From: Flavobacteriales bacterium
Lineage (GTDB): Bacteria; Bacteroidota; Bacteroidia; Flavobacteriales_E; Vicingaceae
DNA: 64,000 nucleotides
Assembly: GCA_015075325.1 (NCBI GenBank)
Contig: JABTUP010000011.1
Location: 27,072 to 91,071, forward strand
Direction of reading: 5' to 3'
Shown piece after piece: positions 4,724-23,999 of this stretch. A program made the position numbers and the translations under genes. The notes below the pieces were generated by a model, which was not told the origin of the DNA, searched no databases, and worked only from the letters and a program-made list of their open reading frames with translations. Positions within the stretch are counted from its first letter, which is position 1. Every line of letters starts with the position of its first letter.

Positions 4724-6172
4724 TTACGCCCAAAACGGAAGATATTTAGCATGTTTTTTAGACTTATTTTCAGGGTCAAAATCTTTTATTTGCCCCGATT
4801 TGATAGCTTCCGATATTATTCTAGAAGCAATAGAATAATTTTTCTCCTCTATTCCAAATCTCTCTCTAAGGGTTTGGTTAGTCATTGATTCACCAGAAAC
4901 ATATTTTAGACAAGAATGTAAGTAACTTGCCCTTATTTTATCATCTTTATCCATTTGTCTCAATGTTTTATGAGCATAAAGAGTCACTCTGGTGTAGTTC
5001 TCTCCTTCAGTAAATTTAGGAGCTGGAAGCTGATAGTATTCACATTCGAAAATAACCTTATCTATACCACTACCTCGTTCTTCACAAATATTAATTCTTC
5101 TCATAAATTGAGCAAGTTTTTCATTTCTTGATTGAGGGTTGTGGTCAACAAATCTCATAGTGCTTATCAACGGTTTTCCAGGGTTAGAAATTTCAATTCT
5201 ATCATCAAATATTTCAATCATTGGACCTGTTCCCTTTTCACTAAAATCTTGATGAATAATTGAGTTAGCAACTAGTTCTCGTATCGCTAATTCTGGAAAC
5301 ATTTTCACCTCTTTTCTAAAAACCTTCCCAATCTCTTCATTCATTGGTAATTGGTCGTTTATGTAATTTATTAATCCTTTAAAGCCAGATGCATATCCTT
5401 TTTTCCCTTCTTGCTCTTTTTTAGTTTTTAATTTGTTTTTCCCTTGATATATAATAACCCTTATAGCTTTCCTTGTTAGTGTTTCAAAATCATCAAGCTG
5501 TTTAGCGAAAAGTATAGCTCCTAAATTTGTAATATCAAATTTTTGTTTCTTTTTTATAATTAATTTTTCTTGTTGTAGTTTTTCAAATATTAAATCTCGA
5601 TTATCAGGAAGAGTGATATTCATTAAATCAAAATAAGAAGGGTAGTCTATAAGTCGCAAAACTTCATCTGCTTCAACATTACTAACAGCGATTCCTTTTT
5701 CAAAAACACTTGGCGGTCTTTTTGTCCAAATCAACCTAGCTTTTTCTGGGAAGTCATCAAGTTTTTTCTTGTAAGAACCTATCCTAATATATGGAATTCC
5801 TTCAAATTTAACTGGAGTATTAGATGCCGCTATAATTTTGAAAATTATTATTTTTTCATTTTCAACTTTAAATTCGAAAAATTCAAAATGTATCCGAGGC
5901 TCAAGTAAACGAGTAATCCAAGGAATCAAATCTTCATTCCCTTTTCCTTTTTGATAGGGATTAAATTTCGTTCCAACTATTCGGTGGGTACGATCATCTA
6001 CGCCAAAAACAATATATGCAAACTCTTTATTATGAATGCAGGCTGAGTTAGAAAGAGCAGATATGTACTCTCCAAGTTCTTGTGCATTATTGGCTTTAAA
6101 TTCTAACCATTCCGTTTCATTAGGAAATGCTCTTAATTCACTTATAAGAATATTAAGTTCTGAATTTGTCAT
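4724..6172 (-). CDS. Schlafen/AlbA_2 + HATPase_c_4 (RecG C-terminal-like) ATP-binding protein
   Basis: N-terminal ETEWLEFK...ISALSN (AlbA_2); ELVANSIIHQD, DRIEISNPG, RNEKLA, EERGSGI (HATPase_c_4); C-terminal HTH-like segment. Confidence 0.85.
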   Translation of the reverse strand: MTNSELNILISELRAFPNETEWLEFKANNAQELGEYISALSNSACIHNKEFAYIVFGVDDRTHRIVGTKFNPYQKGKGNEDLIPWITRLLEPRIHFEFFEFKVENEKIIIFKIIAASNTPVKFEGIPYIRIGSYKKKLDDFPEKARLIWTKRPPSVFEKGIAVSNVEADEVLRLIDYPSYFDLMNITLPDNRDLIFEKLQQEKLIIKKKQKFDITNLGAILFAKQLDDFETLTRKAIRVIIYQGKNKLKTKKEQEGKKGYASGFKGLINYINDQLPMNEEIGKVFRKEVKMFPELAIRELVANSIIHQDFSEKGTGPMIEIFDDRIEISNPGKPLISTMRFVDHNPQSRNEKLAQFMRRINICEERGSGIDKVIFECEYYQLPAPKFTEGENYTRVTLYAHKTLRQMDKDDKIRASYLHSCLKYVSGESMTNQTLRERFGIEEKNYSIASRIISEAIKSGQIKDFDPENKSKKHAKYLPFWA

Positions 6173-7702: not shown

Positions 7703-9294
7703 TTTAAATCATAATCTCTTCCATCTTCAAGCACTCGTTTTCTTGGAATGTAATTTGTGTTAAAAACACTGCATTTTTGATTTAACCCAATGTAATCAAT
7801 TTGATTTAAATCGATTATTGCATGAAACAAATCATCGGTGACAAATGGTTGATTTTTATTTTTAACAATAGTTTGATACACTAATTCCTGCTGTTTAAAC
7901 TCTTCCGAAACCCATAAAACAAATGGAATTTCGACATTTGATTTTGGCATTGTACCTGCATAATCATGTCCAACATGATTGTTTTCATCATACACATTTT
8001 CACTATGGTCGGATAGGTAAATTGACGAAAATAATTGATGTTGATTTTTGTTTGCTGCATTATTTAACATTGTAAAAACACTATCCACAATATAATCGTT
8101 ATACAAAATGGAGTTGTCATACTCATTAATAAGTTGTTCTTTATCAGAAGAATGATTGTTAAATTTATTAAAAGTTGAAGGATACCTTTTGTTGTAACTC
8201 GAGTGGCTTCCCATTAAATGCACTACAACAAACCTGTTTTTTTTATCATCTTGCAGCACTGTTTGAAGAGGTTCAAAAATCATTTCATCAAAAGAAGCTA
8301 AATAGGTGCTTTCAAATGATGAATTTCCAAATTTATTAACAAAAACAACTTGATCTGATGTTTGTGCGAGGTTATAAATAGCATTGTCCCACACGCCAAT
8401 TGGCGATTGATTTGAAATCCAATAGGTTTTAAATCCAGCCGAATGAAAAACATCTATTAAACTAACTGCTTCATCAATGTTTAAATTATTTTCAATGGTT
8501 GAATTGGTTAGCATCGATAAAACCGATTTAAAAGTAACAGAATAAGCACTTACCACATCGTCGTAAATTATAATATCACTTCTTTTTTTAAGTTTTGGAC
8601 TGGTTTCCTTTGAATAACCATAAACCGATAGGTGATTTCTATTTGCTGATTCTCCAAGAATTAGAACAAAAGTGTTTCCTTTTGTATGGTTAATGTTAAG
8701 CTTTGCATCAACCTGTTGAACCGTTCTTTTTTTCAGTTTATTATATGATTTTACTTCTTCGGCAAACGAAATAAAAGCTTCAATTGTTTGAGGAACTCCT
8801 TTTCTGACAAACCTATCATTAACATAATTTTCTGTAACAAACCCAATTGGCAACAACAAAAAAGTTGCGTAGAGATAGTTTTTTGGTTGTTGTTCAATAA
8901 TCGTATTTTGTTTTTTTAATGCATAAAAAAACAAACCAAAATAAGGCAAAACCATCAAATAATAGTAATTGAATTTTAATTGAACAAAATCTGTAGCTTC
9001 ATCTAAATTTGTGTTAAGCAATACAAACAAACTCGAAGCTGTTAGAGGTCCTTTTAAAATTATCCAATGAATAAGCGTTAATAATCCTTCTATAAAAAAT
9101 AGCGTAATTAATACATAATAAACTATTTTACTCTGAGAATAATAATGAATTAAAGTGAAAATAGGAACCCAACAAAGTACAATTGCAATTTCTCGAGTAT
9201 CATAAACATCAAAATTAATGAGCATAGCAACCGCTTGCACAAAGAAAATAAGGAGCAAAAGTGGTAAAGGAAATATACGCTGTAAAAAATTCAT
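7699..9294 (-). CDS. Phosphoethanolamine transferase (EptA/CptA family)
   Basis: N-terminal TM helices; LILGESANR, HLMGSH, NEYDNSILYND and YLSDH motifs. ATG 9294 is preferred over the ORF-track start at 9324. Confidence 0.85.
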   Translation of the reverse strand: MNFLQRIFPLPLLLLIFFVQAVAMLINFDVYDTREIAIVLCWVPIFTLIHYYSQSKIVYYVLITLFFIEGLLTLIHWIILKGPLTASSLFVLLNTNLDEATDFVQLKFNYYYLMVLPYFGLFFYALKKQNTIIEQQPKNYLYATFLLLPIGFVTENYVNDRFVRKGVPQTIEAFISFAEEVKSYNKLKKRTVQQVDAKLNINHTKGNTFVLILGESANRNHLSVYGYSKETSPKLKKRSDIIIYDDVVSAYSVTFKSVLSMLTNSTIENNLNIDEAVSLIDVFHSAGFKTYWISNQSPIGVWDNAIYNLAQTSDQVVFVNKFGNSSFESTYLASFDEMIFEPLQTVLQDDKKNRFVVVHLMGSHSSYNKRYPSTFNKFNNHSSDKEQLINEYDNSILYNDYIVDSVFTMLNNAANKNQHQLFSSIYLSDHSENVYDENNHVGHDYAGTMPKSNVEIPFVLWVSEEFKQQELVYQTIVKNKNQPFVTDDLFHAIIDLNQIDYIGLNQKCSVFNTNYIPRKRVLEDGRDYDLN

Positions 9295-17734: not shown

Positions 17735-18220
17735 TTACTTCATCATTTTTACTTTCGATACATTTTTTTCTTGAGGTCGGAATCCTACTAATATAGATAC
17801 ACAACCTTGAGGTAATATTTTTATTGATTTTTCATCCATTTTAGGCACCGAAACCACCACAATTAATTGCTGTGTGTTGTTTACCCTAAAATCCCAAAAA
17901 GGTTTGGTGTCGCCTTCTTTACTTGAAAATAACTCTTTACCTGTTTTGTCTTTTATTTTAAATGTTACGTTGCCCAACACTTCCTGCCACAATACTAAAA
18001 CGCGGTAATCGTTACCCGCATTAAAAGTCATTTCAATTTCTGCTTCATCGCCAGGCATAAATTTAGTGCTGGTTAATTGCCCATTGTGAATAAATGGTTC
18101 TAAGGCAGGAAATCCTTGTTTTTTGGTAAACGAAGTACATTGTGCAAACGTTGTGTTTGAAAGCCCTATAAAAACAAATAAAATGGAGCTAATGATAAGT
18201 GTTTTATTCAATGATTTCAT
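17735..18220 (-). CDS. Hypothetical exported protein
   Basis: Signal peptide ending TFA|Q; beta-rich mature part; overlaps the upstream lipoprotein gene. Confidence 0.7.
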   Translation of the reverse strand: MKSLNKTLIISSILFVFIGLSNTTFAQCTSFTKKQGFPALEPFIHNGQLTSTKFMPGDEAEIEMTFNAGNDYRVLVLWQEVLGNVTFKIKDKTGKELFSSKEGDTKPFWDFRVNNTQQLIVVVSVPKMDEKSIKILPQGCVSILVGFRPQEKNVSKVKMMK

Positions 18221-19079
18221 TTCTTAATGTTTTTATGTTTTGTGCTATTTCAAAAATTATTTCAGGAGTGTATTGTAGCGATGAACCTCCACTAATTACA
18301 GCAACATTTTCGTTGCTCGAAACACTTGTTGAAGTACTGGAAACTGTTATTTTATCAAAACTTGCTTTTATCACTAAAAGTTTTTCTTTTAGCTTAATGG
18401 TTTCTTCGTGGTCATATAATTCCATTAATTCAATTAGGCTTTCCATAGCGTATTTTTGGTCGGCAATAGCTTTCATAATTGGTTCGCTTGGTTTTTCTTT
18501 TTTAAGACCAGCCGAACCCAAGTATAAACCTTCAATCCATCCTCCTGCTATTGATAAGGCAGATAAATAATCTTGTTGGTTTTCTTTTAAATGCGAGTCG
18601 GCAATCCAATAAGAATCGTTGATGATATTCATTAAAGAATCTCTGTTGTTGAGATTGCGTTCAATACGTTCAATGGTTTCTACATCAAAAGCAGCTGTAA
18701 TACCAAGTTCATCTGCCATTTTTTTCGCACAATTCATATAAAACATACATTGTTGCGATTGATCAAAAATGTTGGCATAACTCAAATCAGCACCATATAC
18801 ACCAAAGTTTAATGCTTGTTTTGTGCTTGTTGAATAATTGCTCACATTATCAATAGGGTTTAGTAATCCTATGTTAAAACCAACCCCAGAACTTTCAAAA
18901 ATTAAGGCGGTTTCGTAAGGTGAAGGAATAGAGTAAAATACTTTTTTGGCTTTGTCAACCCTGCTATTGATTAATGCAGAATCAACTTCGGTTGATAAAA
19001 CATCATCATCGGTTTCAGAGGAGTTTCCTCCGCAAGAAAACAATGTAAAAGCAATTAAAAATAGTGGAATATATTTCAT
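18204..19079 (-). CDS. Hypothetical lipoprotein
   Basis: Lipobox LFSC and predominantly helical sequence; TAnnTTTG (tatctttg) at 19103-19110 upstream. Confidence 0.75.
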   Translation of the reverse strand: MKYIPLFLIAFTLFSCGGNSSETDDDVLSTEVDSALINSRVDKAKKVFYSIPSPYETALIFESSGVGFNIGLLNPIDNVSNYSTSTKQALNFGVYGADLSYANIFDQSQQCMFYMNCAKKMADELGITAAFDVETIERIERNLNNRDSLMNIINDSYWIADSHLKENQQDYLSALSIAGGWIEGLYLGSAGLKKEKPSEPIMKAIADQKYAMESLIELMELYDHEETIKLKEKLLVIKASFDKITVSSTSTSVSSNENVAVISGGSSLQYTPEIIFEIAQNIKTLRNEIIE

Positions 19080-19113
19080 GATTTTTTCAATTAAATTATG
19101 TTCAAAGATATAA

Positions 19114-19159
19114 AAATTAATGAGCCTCTAACCAATTTTTTGCTGAATTCATTTCAACT
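19114..19159 (-). repeat. Displaced duplicate of the polA 3' end (att-like direct repeat, distal copy)
   Basis: 46 bp, 44/46 identical to 21162-21207; encodes VEMNSAKNWLEAH* on the minus strand. Confidence 0.95.
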
Positions 19160-19180
19160 ATATGGATTAGAATAGTTATC

Positions 19181-21070
19181 TTAAAAGAGTGTTGGAATGT
19201 TTTTAAAATTAGTATTTAAATCATAATCATCTACTCGTTCGCCACCTTTAGATGTTGGTAATTTTATAGAAATTAAATAATTTGATTTTTCAAGAATATT
19301 AAATTGATTACGAATTTTTCTTTTAAAGGCATCAAATTTATTAAGCTCTATAACTCTTCCATATTTTAAGAGGTATAAATAATTACCAATTAAACTAGCA
19401 CTTATTTTATTTGATTTTGAAAAATTCTTATGTAAATAAATTGCATTTAAAACTTCCTTATATTCAGGGTTTGGGAGTTCAATGAACTTTTGTCCGAATA
19501 ACTCGGTTAGCTCTAAGTAAAAATTTTTCTTAAAGAAAAGTCTGTCAACAACATAAATTGAATTTATCTCATCACTTTTAGGATGTTTGTAAATTAATTT
19601 TGCTTCTTCAAGAGAATTAATTGCATTCAGATGGTTATTATTTTTTGTTAACATTAGCGTCCATTGATCATTTTTATTGGCAATCTCTGATTTATAAAAA
19701 TAAGCAAGAACAGCCTTTTGGTCTGAATTTAACTCTTCTCCTCCAAGTTTTTCAACTAAATACTTTGAATAAGAAGAAAGTAAAACTTCAAAAGAATCAT
19801 CAACTAATTTACCTTTAGGAATAAATAATGATAATTCATCATTTGAATGAAAAATATAATAAGGCAAATCAATTTCACCATCTAAACAAGCATTTACTAA
19901 ATTTTTCATGCCTCGTCCTTTTCCTTCCCATTTCTGAAAAACATTAAGAACTTTTGCTAATTTAGGGTTGTTAGCCTTTGCATTGTTAGTAATTATCCTT
20001 CTTAAAGGGATTTCTGTTGACTCGTCAAAAATTAATAATAATCTTTTAAACCTACCTGGGTTTCTTATCTCAATGTGTTTTGAAGGAACAACATTAATAT
20101 TAATATATTTATCAATACTATAATCTCTATGAGCTAATGAATTATTTACGCATTCACGGATTAGTTCTTCGGGATACTCATAAGTTTTTGTACCACCTTT
20201 TTCTATCGAAATTCCAGTCTGAATATTCCTAAAAATAAAGCGAGTACTTTCCTCTAAAAGAGGTATAATATTATCTGAAATAATTTTCTTGTTTTGAGGA
20301 AGGTTACCAGGTAATTCAACATAAGCATCCGTTTGACACCTGAAATTTAAGAAATAAGAAAGATTGTTACCACAAACCAACATACCTAATATGGTAGGTC
20401 TATTTTCTCTATACATTCCATTTATAGTGTAAAACGAAATAGCTTCCTCTTGATTTGTTAATAAGTTTTGAACTTTAAATTCAGAATTTAAAAGTTGAAT
20501 ATATTGATTTGCCTTATCTATATCTAAATCGGTTACTTTTGCATTAACAATAGGCTGAAGTTCTCTTAATTCACGAAGTTCTTGCTTATATTCAATTTGT
20601 TTTTCAATGTTTATTCTTGCTATTTTTTCATCACAACTCATCACCCTTTCGTACGCTATTCCTTTATAAAAAACAAATTTTTCGTCAGCAGATAATGAAT
20701 CAACGTATATTACAAGGATTTTTTTGCCAATTAATTCTTTTTGTTCTATGTGAATTTTAGATGAAATATCTATACTCTGATTATTTTCATCTTTTAAGGT
20801 TTTAAGAACTTCTTTTAAAGAGTTCTCATTGTTAAAGTTAAAACCTGTAACCTCATACTTTTTATTTTTTACATCTTCATTTACCCCAAGTATGATGATT
20901 CCATTATCAGTGTTCAAAAAAGCACATACACTTTCCATTACACTATCCCATTTCACTTTGTCTGCATGACCATAATTCTTCAGTTCAATAGTTTCATCTT
21001 CAATTCTTTCGTATTGAGAATTTATGATTGAATCTTCAATTTCTGCAAGTATTTTATCAATTACCTTCAT
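19181..21070 (-). CDS. Schlafen/AlbA_2 + HATPase_c_4 ATP-binding protein
   Basis: EDETIELK, VCAFLNTDNGIIILGV (AlbA_2); ECVNNSLAHRDY, IEIRNPG, NPKLA, WEGKGRGM (HATPase_c_4). Confidence 0.85.
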   Translation of the reverse strand: MKVIDKILAEIEDSIINSQYERIEDETIELKNYGHADKVKWDSVMESVCAFLNTDNGIIILGVNEDVKNKKYEVTGFNFNNENSLKEVLKTLKDENNQSIDISSKIHIEQKELIGKKILVIYVDSLSADEKFVFYKGIAYERVMSCDEKIARINIEKQIEYKQELRELRELQPIVNAKVTDLDIDKANQYIQLLNSEFKVQNLLTNQEEAISFYTINGMYRENRPTILGMLVCGNNLSYFLNFRCQTDAYVELPGNLPQNKKIISDNIIPLLEESTRFIFRNIQTGISIEKGGTKTYEYPEELIRECVNNSLAHRDYSIDKYININVVPSKHIEIRNPGRFKRLLLIFDESTEIPLRRIITNNAKANNPKLAKVLNVFQKWEGKGRGMKNLVNACLDGEIDLPYYIFHSNDELSLFIPKGKLVDDSFEVLLSSYSKYLVEKLGGEELNSDQKAVLAYFYKSEIANKNDQWTLMLTKNNNHLNAINSLEEAKLIYKHPKSDEINSIYVVDRLFFKKNFYLELTELFGQKFIELPNPEYKEVLNAIYLHKNFSKSNKISASLIGNYLYLLKYGRVIELNKFDAFKRKIRNQFNILEKSNYLISIKLPTSKGGERVDDYDLNTNFKNIPTLF

Positions 21071-21164
21071 TATACTTGTCTTTACTTAATTGTTGTGTAT
21101 TAGAACAAATGAAAAAATTAATTGTAAAAATACTAAAATGTGCTTGATATTTATTTCTAATAAA

Positions 21165-23999
21165 TTAATGTGCCTCCAACCAATTTTTTGCTGAATTCAT
21201 TTCAACTTCTAAAGGCACTACTAATTTAAAAGCATTTTCCATTTTATCTTTTACAATGGTTTTAATGGTTTCTAATTCAGGTTTATACACATCAAAAACT
21301 AACTCATCATGCACTTGCAAAAGCATTTTTGATTGAAATTGTTGTTGTTCAAATGCCTCAAAAATATTAATCATCGCAATTTTTATGATATCGGCAGCAG
21401 AACCCTGAATAGGAGCATTAATAGCGTTTCGTTCGGCATGACCGCGAACGATGGCATTTGCAGAGTTGATGTCTTTTAAATACCTTCTACGATGTAAAAT
21501 AGTTTCTACATAACCGTGTTCTTTTGCAAAATCAATGTTATTATCCATGTATGCTTTAATTTTTGGATATTGAGCAAAATAAGCATCAATAATTTCTTTG
21601 GCTTCGCCTCTCGAAATGTTAAGGTTTTGAGCCAATCCGAAAGACGATTGTCCATAAATAATTCCAAAATTCACAGCTTTAGCTTTGCTACGCATTTCTC
21701 TATCCACATCAGCCAAAGCAACTCCAAAAACCTTAGCAGCAGTAGCCGCATGAATGTCTTCTTTATTTACAAATGCTTTTTGCATATTTTGGTCACCACT
21801 TAGTGCCGCAATAATGCGTAATTCAATTTGCGAGTAATCGGCTGCTAACAACGTAAAATCATCGTTTTTAGCAATAAACGCTTTTCGAATTTCACGCCCC
21901 ATTTGTGTTCTAATGGGTATGTTTTGTAAGTTAGGATTCGTTGAACTCAACCTGCCTGTTGATGCAACGGTTTGCATATAGCTGGTATGTATCCTCCCTG
22001 TTTTAGGGCTAACCAATTCTGGCAATGCATCAACGTAAGTCGATTTTAGTTTTCGTACCGAACGGTATTCTAGTATTTTAGGAATAATATCGTGTTTTCC
22101 CATTAACTTTTGAAGTTCATCTTCACCAGTAGCGTATTGTCCGGTTTTGGTTTTTTTAGGCTTTTCAATAATTTTTAAGTATTCAAACAACACTTCGCCC
22201 AATTGTTTTGGCGAATCGATGTTAAATTTCGTTCCAGCCAATGTTAAAATATCTTTTTCGAGATTAGTGCCTAAAATTTCAAGCTCTTTCGAGAAGGAGC
22301 TCAAAGCCTCAACATCTAATCTAATTCCTTCGTTTTCCATAGCTGCTAAAACCGAAATTAAAGGTGTTTCCACTTTTTCAAACACTTCTTTAATCTCTTT
22401 TGTAAGTTTTGGTTCAAGATAAGTTTTGAGTTGCAGCGTAATATCAGCATCTTCGGCAGCATATTCTACTAGTTTTTCAATAGGAACATCTCTCATGTTT
22501 AATTGTCCCTTCCCTTTTTTTCCAATCAAGGTTTCAATAGAAACGGGTTTGTAGCCCAAATACGCTTCTGCTAAAAAATCCATGCTGTGACGCATGTCGG
22601 GTTCTAACAGAAAATGGGCAATCATGGTATCAAACAATTTTCCTTTTACACGAATACCGTATTTATGCAATACGTTGATGTCGTATTTTATGTTTTGTCC
22701 AATTTTTTCGATGGTTTCATTTTCAAAAAGTGGCACAAATTCTTTTAATATGTGGGTGGTTTCTTCTTGGTTTTCTGAGAAAGGAACGTAATACGCTTCG
22801 TGATGTTTAAAGGCAAACGACATACCCACCAATTCAGCCTCAAATGCATTCAGTCCTGTGGTTTCGGTATCAAAACAAAACGATTTTTGATTGGCAAGTT
22901 GTTGAATTAATTCCGCTCTTTTTTGTGGTGTATCAATTAGCGAATAGGAGTGAGGCACATTTTCAATGTTCTTTCCAGCTTCCACAACTTCTAAATCATC
23001 AGTATTGTTTTGGGCTTGATCTCCCCCTCCTTCGGAGGGGGTTGGGGGGAGGCTAAACAAATCCATTTGTCCGTTGGTTGGAACTGCTCCTATTTGAGTG
23101 GTCGGAGCAATTTGAATTTCTCTTCCCAACACTCTTTTGGCTAAATTCCTGAATTCGAGTTCAGCAAATAATGCTGTAATTTTTTCTTCATCGGGCTCTT
23201 CAAGCTCCAATTCTTTATAGCTAAATTCAATTGGAACATCTAAAATAATGGTAGCTAATTTTTTAGAAAGCAACCCTTGTTCAGCAAAATTGATAACATT
23301 TTCTTGTTGTTTGCCTTTTAATTCGTGAGCATGAGCAATTAAATTTTCTACGCTGCCGTATTGTTTAACAAGGAGTTTAGCAGTTTTTTCGCCAATACCA
23401 GGTATTCCAGGAATGTTATCGACAGCATCGCCCCACAAACCTAAAATATCGATTACTTGCAATGGATTTTCTACTTCAAATTTTTCGCACACTTCTTTTA
23501 CACCCAATACTTCAGCTGGTTTTCCAAATGCAGCAGGTTTGTAAATAAAAATATTTTCGGAAACCAATTGACCAAAATCCTTGTCTGGAGTCATCATGTA
23601 AGTGGTAAATCCATCTTTTTCGGCTTGTTTTGCCATGGTTCCAATTACGTCGTCGGCTTCAAAACCATCTTTTAGCAAAATAGGTATTTTAAATGCTTCG
23701 ATAATTTGTTTTACATAAGGCAATGCTTTTCGGATGTCTTCGGGCATTTCTTGTCGGTTGGCTTTGTAGTTTGCAAATTCTAACGAGCGGTTGGTTGCTA
23801 CAGGAGCGTCAAAAACTACCGCAATGTGCGATGGTTTTTGTTTTTCTAAAATCTCGATTAACGTATTGGTAAACCCCAACATGGTAGAAGTGTTTAATCC
23901 TTTGGAATTGTACCGTTGGTTATTGCCAAAAGCAAAGTATGCTCTGTAGATTAATGCAAACGCATCGAGTAAAAAAAGTTTTTTATTGTTTTCTGGCAT
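21165..23999 (-). CDS. polA: DNA polymerase I
   Basis: 5'-3' exonuclease (LLDAFALIYR, FEADDVIG), 3'-5' exonuclease (CFDTETTG), polymerase motifs (TGRLSSTNPNLQNIP, ADYSQIELR, AKAVNFGIIYG, QVHDEL). Confidence 0.98.
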   Translation of the reverse strand: MPENNKKLFLLDAFALIYRAYFAFGNNQRYNSKGLNTSTMLGFTNTLIEILEKQKPSHIAVVFDAPVATNRSLEFANYKANRQEMPEDIRKALPYVKQIIEAFKIPILLKDGFEADDVIGTMAKQAEKDGFTTYMMTPDKDFGQLVSENIFIYKPAAFGKPAEVLGVKEVCEKFEVENPLQVIDILGLWGDAVDNIPGIPGIGEKTAKLLVKQYGSVENLIAHAHELKGKQQENVINFAEQGLLSKKLATIILDVPIEFSYKELELEEPDEEKITALFAELEFRNLAKRVLGREIQIAPTTQIGAVPTNGQMDLFSLPPTPSEGGGDQAQNNTDDLEVVEAGKNIENVPHSYSLIDTPQKRAELIQQLANQKSFCFDTETTGLNAFEAELVGMSFAFKHHEAYYVPFSENQEETTHILKEFVPLFENETIEKIGQNIKYDINVLHKYGIRVKGKLFDTMIAHFLLEPDMRHSMDFLAEAYLGYKPVSIETLIGKKGKGQLNMRDVPIEKLVEYAAEDADITLQLKTYLEPKLTKEIKEVFEKVETPLISVLAAMENEGIRLDVEALSSFSKELEILGTNLEKDILTLAGTKFNIDSPKQLGEVLFEYLKIIEKPKKTKTGQYATGEDELQKLMGKHDIIPKILEYRSVRKLKSTYVDALPELVSPKTGRIHTSYMQTVASTGRLSSTNPNLQNIPIRTQMGREIRKAFIAKNDDFTLLAADYSQIELRIIAALSGDQNMQKAFVNKEDIHAATAAKVFGVALADVDREMRSKAKAVNFGIIYGQSSFGLAQNLNISRGEAKEIIDAYFAQYPKIKAYMDNNIDFAKEHGYVETILHRRRYLKDINSANAIVRGHAERNAINAPIQGSAADIIKIAMINIFEAFEQQQFQSKMLLQVHDELVFDVYKPELETIKTIVKDKMENAFKLVVPLEVEMNSAKNWLEAH
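23021..23054. repeat. REP-like GC-rich palindrome inserted in frame in polA
   Basis: ccccctcc-ttc-ggaggggg perfect 8-bp stem plus ttggggggaggct; homologous to the intergenic copy at 49626-49656. Confidence 0.85.

Follow-up and report, generated by a model that had tools for sequence, protein, structure and literature searches.

The window analysed here is a 64,000-nucleotide (nt) stretch of contig JABTUP010000011.1 from a Flavobacteriales bacterium of the family Vicingaceae (assembly GCA_015075325.1, positions 27,072 to 91,071). Within it, the 3' end of polA, the gene for DNA polymerase I, has taken up a foreign unit of 2,002 bp, made up of a single gene with a 91-nt leader and a 21-nt trailer and present in one species of this Bacteroidota genus. 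The unit is framed by two copies of the polA end, and together they are referred to as the islet; its only gene, the cargo, encodes a protein of 629 amino acids (aa) that combines a Schlafen domain with a probable GHKL-type ATPase and a probable helix-turn-helix (HTH) region. We consider it probable that the unit entered by host recombination, through a single crossover of a recircularised donor fragment, and not by means of a dedicated integrase. Many defence genes are found between core genes without any mobile-element genes, and their arrival usually goes unexplained. The islet has preserved the scar of its entry unusually well, as shown by a near-perfect duplicated tail, by exact empty sites, by two further independent events at the polA tail and, for one of these, by a donor state that is free of duplication.

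A repeat search of the window returned one outstanding direct repeat, located at 19114-19159 and 21162-21207, the copies of which are identical at 44 of 46 nt and have a start-to-start spacing of 2,048 bp; the number of such pairs expected by chance in the window is 3e-13. The repeat comprises the last 13 codons of polA (VEMNSAKNWLEAH), the stop codon and a further 3 nt, and the same peptide is encoded by both copies. Both mismatches (TTG/TTA and GCA/GCT) fall on synonymous third positions near the stop codon, leaving the 30 nt on the 5' side, in the sense of the gene, identical, and a 26-nt core of the repeat has exactly two occurrences in the 3.3-Mb genome. The GC content of the 2,002 unique islet bases is 26.9%, compared with 36.5% in polA and 33.6% in the window. 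The duplicated polA end, its spacing, its identical core and the synonymous nature of its differences had all been described in an initial annotation made from the sequence of the window, and each of these descriptions was borne out.

Alignment with related genomes confirmed that the islet is an insertion and that the distal copy of the repeat is the native end of polA. In seven congeners the polA stop codon is situated ~36 nt before the ATG of a lipoprotein-like gene, and the same empty site, with polA joined directly to the lipoprotein gene, is seen in a JGI metagenome contig (L141). Orthologues of the lipoprotein gene occur in 11/11 congeners and adjoin polA in seven of them; no orthologue of the cargo gene was found in the 11 congeners searched. 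The congeners' polA orthologues are 80-94% identical over the last 299 residues. The spacer that follows the distal copy (TTATATCTTTGAAC..., TAATTTTTATATCTTTGAAC) can be aligned, TAnnTTTG box included, to that between polA and the lipoprotein gene at the empty sites, while the sequence after the polA-attached copy is specific to the islet and has no counterpart in them. The initial annotation had regarded the distal copy as native on account of the next gene's -7 promoter and had called for a search for empty sites, and these alignments support it on both points.

The same islet structure was recovered from two ENA assemblies, one NCBI metagenome-assembled genome (MAG) and one Logan unitig of the species, at 94.6-99% identity depending on the segment. 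In three other strains the copies differ at one site only, with GCA in the attached and GCT in the displaced copy; this difference is fixed across four strains, and GCT, the codon of the displaced copy, is also that of the nearest congener with an empty site. Although it is a single site, the pattern is consistent with an imported stop-proximal segment. The TTG to TTA change, on the other hand, is private to the displaced copy of this strain and therefore arose after the insertion. The earlier proposal of a donor with a slightly divergent polA end can thus hold for one of the two differences only, as GCA/GCT may be a donor allele and TTG/TTA is a later private mutation.

When this strain is compared with the three others, the islet shows 98.95-99.0% identity and the last ~400-500 nt of polA (window about 21208-21750) show 7-9% divergence. 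The transition falls abruptly at the left edge of the attached repeat, with 9 mismatches in the preceding 33 nt and none in the repeat. A dating of the islet as younger than its flanks was considered and dropped, the whole region being mosaic. The abrupt transition therefore only shows that recombination tracts end at the repeat, which is predicted by the single-crossover model and by imports from islet-free strains alike. A metagenome scan with the full 45-nt repeat gave no match; with the 26-nt core it gave one contig, which comes from a relative outside the species and shows the empty site.

The polA tail has also been a site of change elsewhere in the family. A polA-tail pattern has one match in most of 87 family genomes and essentially none in a reversed control. 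In a member of another genus (G049; locus L149, contig C4, 883-1521, minus strand), two polA tails 618 bp apart enclose a promoterless gene for a GNAT acetyltransferase, which starts 16 nt after the polA stop codon and is separated from the displaced tail by 10 nt; the repeat here is ~54 nt long with 3 mismatches. Two congeners of G049 (G057 and G058; loci L156 and L157) have polA followed by the GNAT gene without a displaced tail, which, read from the gene order, is the donor-type state without duplication. Furthermore, the attached copy in G049 is the G057 allele and the displaced copy has its own variants. This split of alleles is exactly what a single-crossover import predicts and was therefore counted in favour of that model.

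In two of the congeners, G003 (L042) and G009 (L043, 8600-8671), a decayed polA tail lies just upstream of the lipoprotein gene; the alignment score was reached by 28 of 2000 shuffles for G003 and by 2 of 2000 for G009. The lipoprotein gene is preceded there by other genes, over at least 4.4 kb in G003 and at least 8.8 kb in G009, comprising a cytochrome c / 4Fe-4S / NrfD-type cluster, and polA is on another contig, followed by convergent secreted-protein genes. A further congener, G010 (L044, 10103-13826), carries between polA and the lipoprotein gene an insert that encodes a sensor histidine kinase of 990 aa, the start codon of which directly follows the polA stop, and a LytTR response regulator; no significant remnant of a displaced polA tail was found in this genome. 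The other cargo at the polA site that the initial annotation had suggested looking for in relatives is therefore present, as the GNAT gene of G049 and as the inserts in G003, G009 and G010. Repeat extents vary among the events at this site (46, ~54 and 25-57 nt). Apparent duplicates of the polA tail in three more genomes (G087, G077 and G067) were rejected as a scaffolding gap and redundant contigs, not insertions; in the G087 case (L172, contig C227, 2478-2653), identical polA tails lie on either side of a run of N, a scaffolding artefact that mimics a duplication.

Homologues of the cargo at other loci were surveyed for the same footprint. We retrieved 80 loci with homologues that were 40-66% identical and came from many phyla, 76 of which were testable, and scored the direct repeat common to the 500 nt upstream and the 500 nt downstream of the gene. 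Scores of at least 29 were reached at 7/76 loci and of at least 17 at 9/76, with a maximum of 14 in the reversed-sequence control; among neighbouring open reading frames (ORFs) of at least 300 aa, the corresponding counts were 1/234 and 4/234 (Fisher p=3e-4 and 6e-4). Wherever the footprint is clear, the repeated sequence (19-303 nt) corresponds to the 3' end of an adjacent gene, and these cases involve different target genes, several phyla and both orientations. The target gene is upstream and co-oriented at L105 (133 nt), L103 (171 nt), L137 (54 nt), L085 (19 nt) and L062/L063 (19-44 nt), and downstream and convergent at L100 (155 nt), L107 (65 nt) and L076 (303 nt, a whole 90-aa gene). The unit in the clear cases is always a single gene, 1.95-2.38 kb in size. 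In most surveyed islets the repeats end 0-30 nt past the stop codon, as compared with 3 nt at the polA islet, and for L103 nine relatives have the target gene without adjoining cargo. No shared boundary motif and no conserved non-coding flanks were found among the islets, and no polA-tail remnants were found at other cargo loci.

The differences between the two copies of these repeats are distributed over codon positions 1, 2 and 3 as 15, 10 and 35 (chi-square p=1.6e-4). This third-position bias suggests, from codon positions, that both copies evolved as coding sequence and that one of them is the end of an imported orthologous gene. It speaks against a duplication of the target because neutral decay would not give such a pattern.

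Two of the surveyed regions have features of their own. At L076, in a Cytophagales MAG, the homologue stands between two intact copies of the 90-aa gene (5496-5798 and 7873-8175) that are 96% identical, and the repeat ends exactly at the ATG. At L185 (G116, contig C208, 800-1220) there is a tandem duplication of ~230 nt, made up of the tail of the L100 target gene and a GC-rich hairpin resembling a repetitive extragenic palindrome (REP-like), with no cargo between the copies; it may represent a scar or else a small insertion of separate origin.

The order of attached end, cargo and displaced end at polA is the one that would result if a circle, formed by a gene tail and the cargo, recombined once with the chromosomal tail. 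In the model that we favour, the donor would already have had the cargo directly behind its own polA. A fragment reaching from 39 nt before the polA stop to 21 nt after the cargo stop would have been made circular, for example by cutting, nibbling and re-closure of the incoming DNA, and this circle would have crossed over once with the near-identical polA tail of the recipient in a Campbell-type event, which duplicates exactly the homologous stretch carried on the circle. The end of the repeat just past the stop codon would correspond to the end of homology between donor and recipient, and its start to the chance start of the fragment. Selection would then have retained an outcome in which polA and the lipoprotein promoter are both intact; natural survivors would be found at 3' ends because only there are the target gene and its neighbour's promoter both kept. 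The 30-35 nt of perfect identity would permit rare RecA-mediated loss or re-circularisation of the unit, the junction of the circle being ...CCATAT-repeat-ATTAGAAA. There is an experimental precedent in Escherichia coli conjugation with one-sided homology, in which 56/60 integrants had arisen by a single crossover of molecules that had been cut, partly degraded and closed again, with duplication of 109-950 bp of the lacZ end, and 4/60 by true homology-facilitated illegitimate recombination (PMC3240628). Among the three routes of entry that the initial annotation had put forward, homology-assisted recombination is hence preferred over reduction from a larger island, and mobilisation in trans is kept as an unlikely alternative.

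Several observations weigh against this model. A donor-type arrangement of polA and the Schlafen gene without duplication was not found, and the nearest outside homologue, which is 77% identical and sits after obg, has no flanking repeats, nor were any found around the next closest (71%). A length of 46 nt is short for an efficient RecA crossover, and with one ancestral mismatch the islet by itself does not allow an imported end to be told apart from a long target duplication that later acquired a single mutation. Three polA-tail events in 87 genomes could reflect a site-specific enzyme, and the proximity of recombinases to polA was checked for 150 of the 410 family matches only. Finally, the control set of the survey consists mostly of core genes and not of other solo accessory genes.

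Such an enzyme is the basis of the explanation that we take most seriously besides our own. The islet would then resemble a cis-mobilisable element (CIME), with its 46-nt repeats serving as attL and attR. The tyrosine recombinase recognising them would be encoded away from the islet, by an integrative and conjugative element (ICE), an integrative and mobilisable element (IME) or a prophage that targets the polA 3' end; it would have integrated the unit in trans and may still excise it. A replacement gene end with the original displaced is the classic att footprint, and the main support comes from the occurrence of at least three events at the polA tail within one family; moreover, 12 tyrosine-recombinase matches exist in this genome (G000), several of them non-Xer, on other contigs. 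However, a profile search (PF00589) found no tyrosine recombinase on the islet's own contig (C3), in keeping with the earlier remark that the islet has none; neither was one found adjoining polA or the lipoprotein gene in G000, G003, G009 and G010, nor near polA among the 150 listed of the 410 family matches. The non-coding DNA that might hold arm sites amounts to just 91 and 21 nt, repeat extents are not constant at the same site, and the occurrence of the same footprint at many different genes would require a different helper each time. We regard mobilisation in trans as unlikely, if worth keeping in mind. A related explanation sees in the islet what is left of a larger integrative island, the integrase and other genes of which were deleted until one selected defence gene was left between the att sites. 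While att-flanked remnants without an integrase are common and defence genes are frequently retained, the junctions here are tight on the gene and the layout is identical in four strains; in other phyla, about eight independent events involve units of the same single-gene size, and repeated decay to exactly the same gene is unlikely. A relic of this kind strikes us as quite improbable.

The repeat could also be a long target-site duplication, produced by staggered breaks that were filled in around captured DNA or by a transposition-like activity, possibly promoted by the Schlafen-GHKL-HTH protein itself. The near-perfect repeat (1/46 differing ancestrally) would fit, as would the enrichment of the footprint around a protein family with predicted nuclease, ATPase and DNA-binding parts. 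Against this, the copies of the older repeats differ mostly at third codon positions, the stop codon is where repeats end, non-Schlafen cargo has left the same footprint at the polA site together with a duplication-free donor state, and there are neither inverted ends nor multi-copy spread. The islet has no second ORF and no transposase, and terminal inverted repeats above those of shuffled sequences were found neither in it (the best end-to-end match was equalled in 328/1000 shuffles) nor in 9 islets; a candidate pair at its ends, ATTAGAAATA and TATTCTAAT, proved to be at chance level. The marks of a transposon or insertion sequence, i.e., a transposase, inverted ends and a short fixed target duplication, are thus lacking in a unit with one non-transposase ORF and a 46-nt repeat, and we hold a target-site duplication to be improbable. 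It is barely conceivable that the islet is an artefact of assembly, or a vertically inherited gene that was lost in the relatives, the two outcomes that the initial annotation had set against an insertion. The genome is a 62-contig draft; however, the islet is not an assembly artefact because the same arrangement is found in independent assemblies of the species, four of which agree, and the dip in GC content, the displaced tail and the empty sites of seven congeners, in none of which the cargo was found, indicate a gain.

The cargo gene occupies 19181-21070 on the minus strand, and the initial annotation had recognised in it one Schlafen/AlbA_2-ATPase gene. The SLFN_AlbA_2 domain (PF04326) covers residues 24-147 (E=1.6e-12, 48.4 bits against a cut-off of 25.3), which confirms the first part of that description, and its catalytic motif, E24-D-E-T-I-E29-L-K31 (Ex4ExK), is intact. 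Among 35 homologues that are 46-77% identical, E24 and K31 are invariant and E29 is conserved in at least 90%. For the ATPase part, HATPase_c_4 (PF13749) scores 20.5 bits, below the cut-off of 26, and GHKL-type motifs (N310/A313-H314-R315-D316-Y317, N337-P338-G339 and G383...G387) are conserved in the 35 homologues. An AlphaFold2 (AF2) model of the protein, with a predicted local distance difference test score (pLDDT) of 83.7, has its best PDB match over its length in DIP2311 (3lmm), at ~14% identity, and further fold matches in the N-domains of SLFN13 and SLFN5, followed by histidine-kinase ATP-binding domains and PadR-type HTH units. Residues ~430-629 form helical or winged units in the model, with local Foldseek matches to PadR/MarR-type regulators (probability 0.9-0.99, high E-values).

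Judged by these domains, the cargo probably has the pSlfn-HisKinase(-HTH) architecture of prokaryotic Schlafens (pSlfn), the commonest pSlfn class; HisKinase and HisKinase-HTH proteins together are the most frequent of 55 classes (34% plus 19%), and the pSlfn catalytic motif has been defined as Ex4(E/D)xK (PMC13056530). The protein is predicted to be an ATP-switched nuclease of tRNA or other RNA with a DNA-binding tail and to constitute a phage defence by itself. Defence is unproven for its class, because among seven pSlfn systems tested the two protective genes were DUF262 and Ig-like fusions only (PMC13056530). PADLOC returned weak local matches only, and on known plasmids and phages merely 23-26% identical relatives were found, with no close ones. 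No binding-site array was found near the cargo promoter, and the islet has no tandem array. The cargo is single-copy in the genome, which has three weaker paralogues of less than 40% identity, two of them on contigs C56 and C34. The third is a second, unrelated Schlafen/AlbA_2-GHKL-type gene in the window itself (482 aa, 4724-6172, minus strand), about 13-15 kb from the islet, for which neither an orthologue in the 11 congeners nor a long flanking direct repeat was found.

The region as a whole consists of three co-oriented genes on the minus strand: polA, the cargo gene and the lipoprotein-like gene. polA (21165-23999, 944 aa) has all four Pol I domains (Pfam DNA_pol_A, 5_3_exonuc_N, 5_3_exonuc and DNA_pol_A_exo1), and its last 13 codons lie within the attached repeat copy (21162-21207), which completes the gene and of which the stop-proximal part with GCA is the candidate imported replacement end. 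The islet sequence begins there with the leader (21071-21161), which runs to the cargo ATG and has neither an exact TAnnTTTG box nor a terminator. The cargo stop is followed by the trailer (19160-19180) and by the displaced, non-coding original tail (19114-19159), which is joined to the native spacer (19080-19113). This spacer holds a Bacteroidota-type -7 box, TATCTTTG (19103-19110), where the empty sites of the congeners have TATATTTG. The lipoprotein-like gene (18204-19079, 291 aa) has no Pfam match and is the conserved downstream neighbour of polA. No intrinsic terminator was predicted between polA, the cargo and the lipoprotein gene, and because the leader also has no exact -7 box, read-through from polA into the cargo is plausible on the sequence, as the initial annotation had suggested from the shared orientation.

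Taken together, the polA islet and the survey of 76 homologues support a gene-tail-anchored single crossover, a route that needs no dedicated recombinase. A wider and rather doubtful extension is that Schlafen-GHKL-HTH genes, and perhaps other single-gene defence cassettes, are minimal mobile units, i.e., small circles of one gene and a borrowed gene tail that enter at the 3' ends of conserved housekeeping genes without a recombinase of their own, through host recombination or through the nuclease-ATPase-HTH protein itself. If true, this would explain the presence of defence genes at core-genome sites without mobile-element genes.

Parts of this picture are familiar from other systems. CIMEs, the small integrase-less, att-flanked islets that take part in the accretion of Streptococcus ICEs, have direct repeats at a gene 3' end; the islet is like them in its repeats, its small size and its want of an integrase, and differs in that no cognate ICE or integrase was found, in holding one gene only and in the varying repeat extents at its site. 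In E. coli icd, e14 and phage 21 replace the 3' end of the gene with one borne by the element. The islet shares with them a near-synonymous substitute for the last codons and an original end displaced downstream, but they are prophages of 20-40 kb that encode their own integrase. Core-gene-flanked defence hotspots (cDHS), which reportedly have no mobility genes, are similar in placing a defence-type gene between conserved core genes with occupancy that varies among relatives, and the islet departs from them in its precise duplicated gene tail, which marks the entry. Its mechanistic counterpart is the insertion-duplication of the conjugation experiments (PMC3240628), which likewise directly duplicates a homologous gene end over a variable length with no dedicated recombinase, although the duplications there were 109-950 bp compared with 46 nt here. 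The cargo, in turn, agrees with the HisKinase/HisKinase-HTH class of prokaryotic Schlafens in its SLFN_AlbA_2 domain with Ex4(E/D)xK, its probable PF13749-type GHKL domain and C-terminal HTH and its stand-alone occurrence (PMC13056530), and probably has the same architecture as the "Schlatpase" supradomain proteins (bioRxiv 10.64898/2026.05.29.728809) and DIP2311. It differs in its low identity to the latter and in its location among housekeeping genes instead of in a defence island. The locus offers a compact, natural polA-linked Schlafen-GHKL-HTH gene of the commonest pSlfn class; we see in the islet another case of a known architecture, not a new kind of element, and a clean example of a common, little-described route of single-gene entry.

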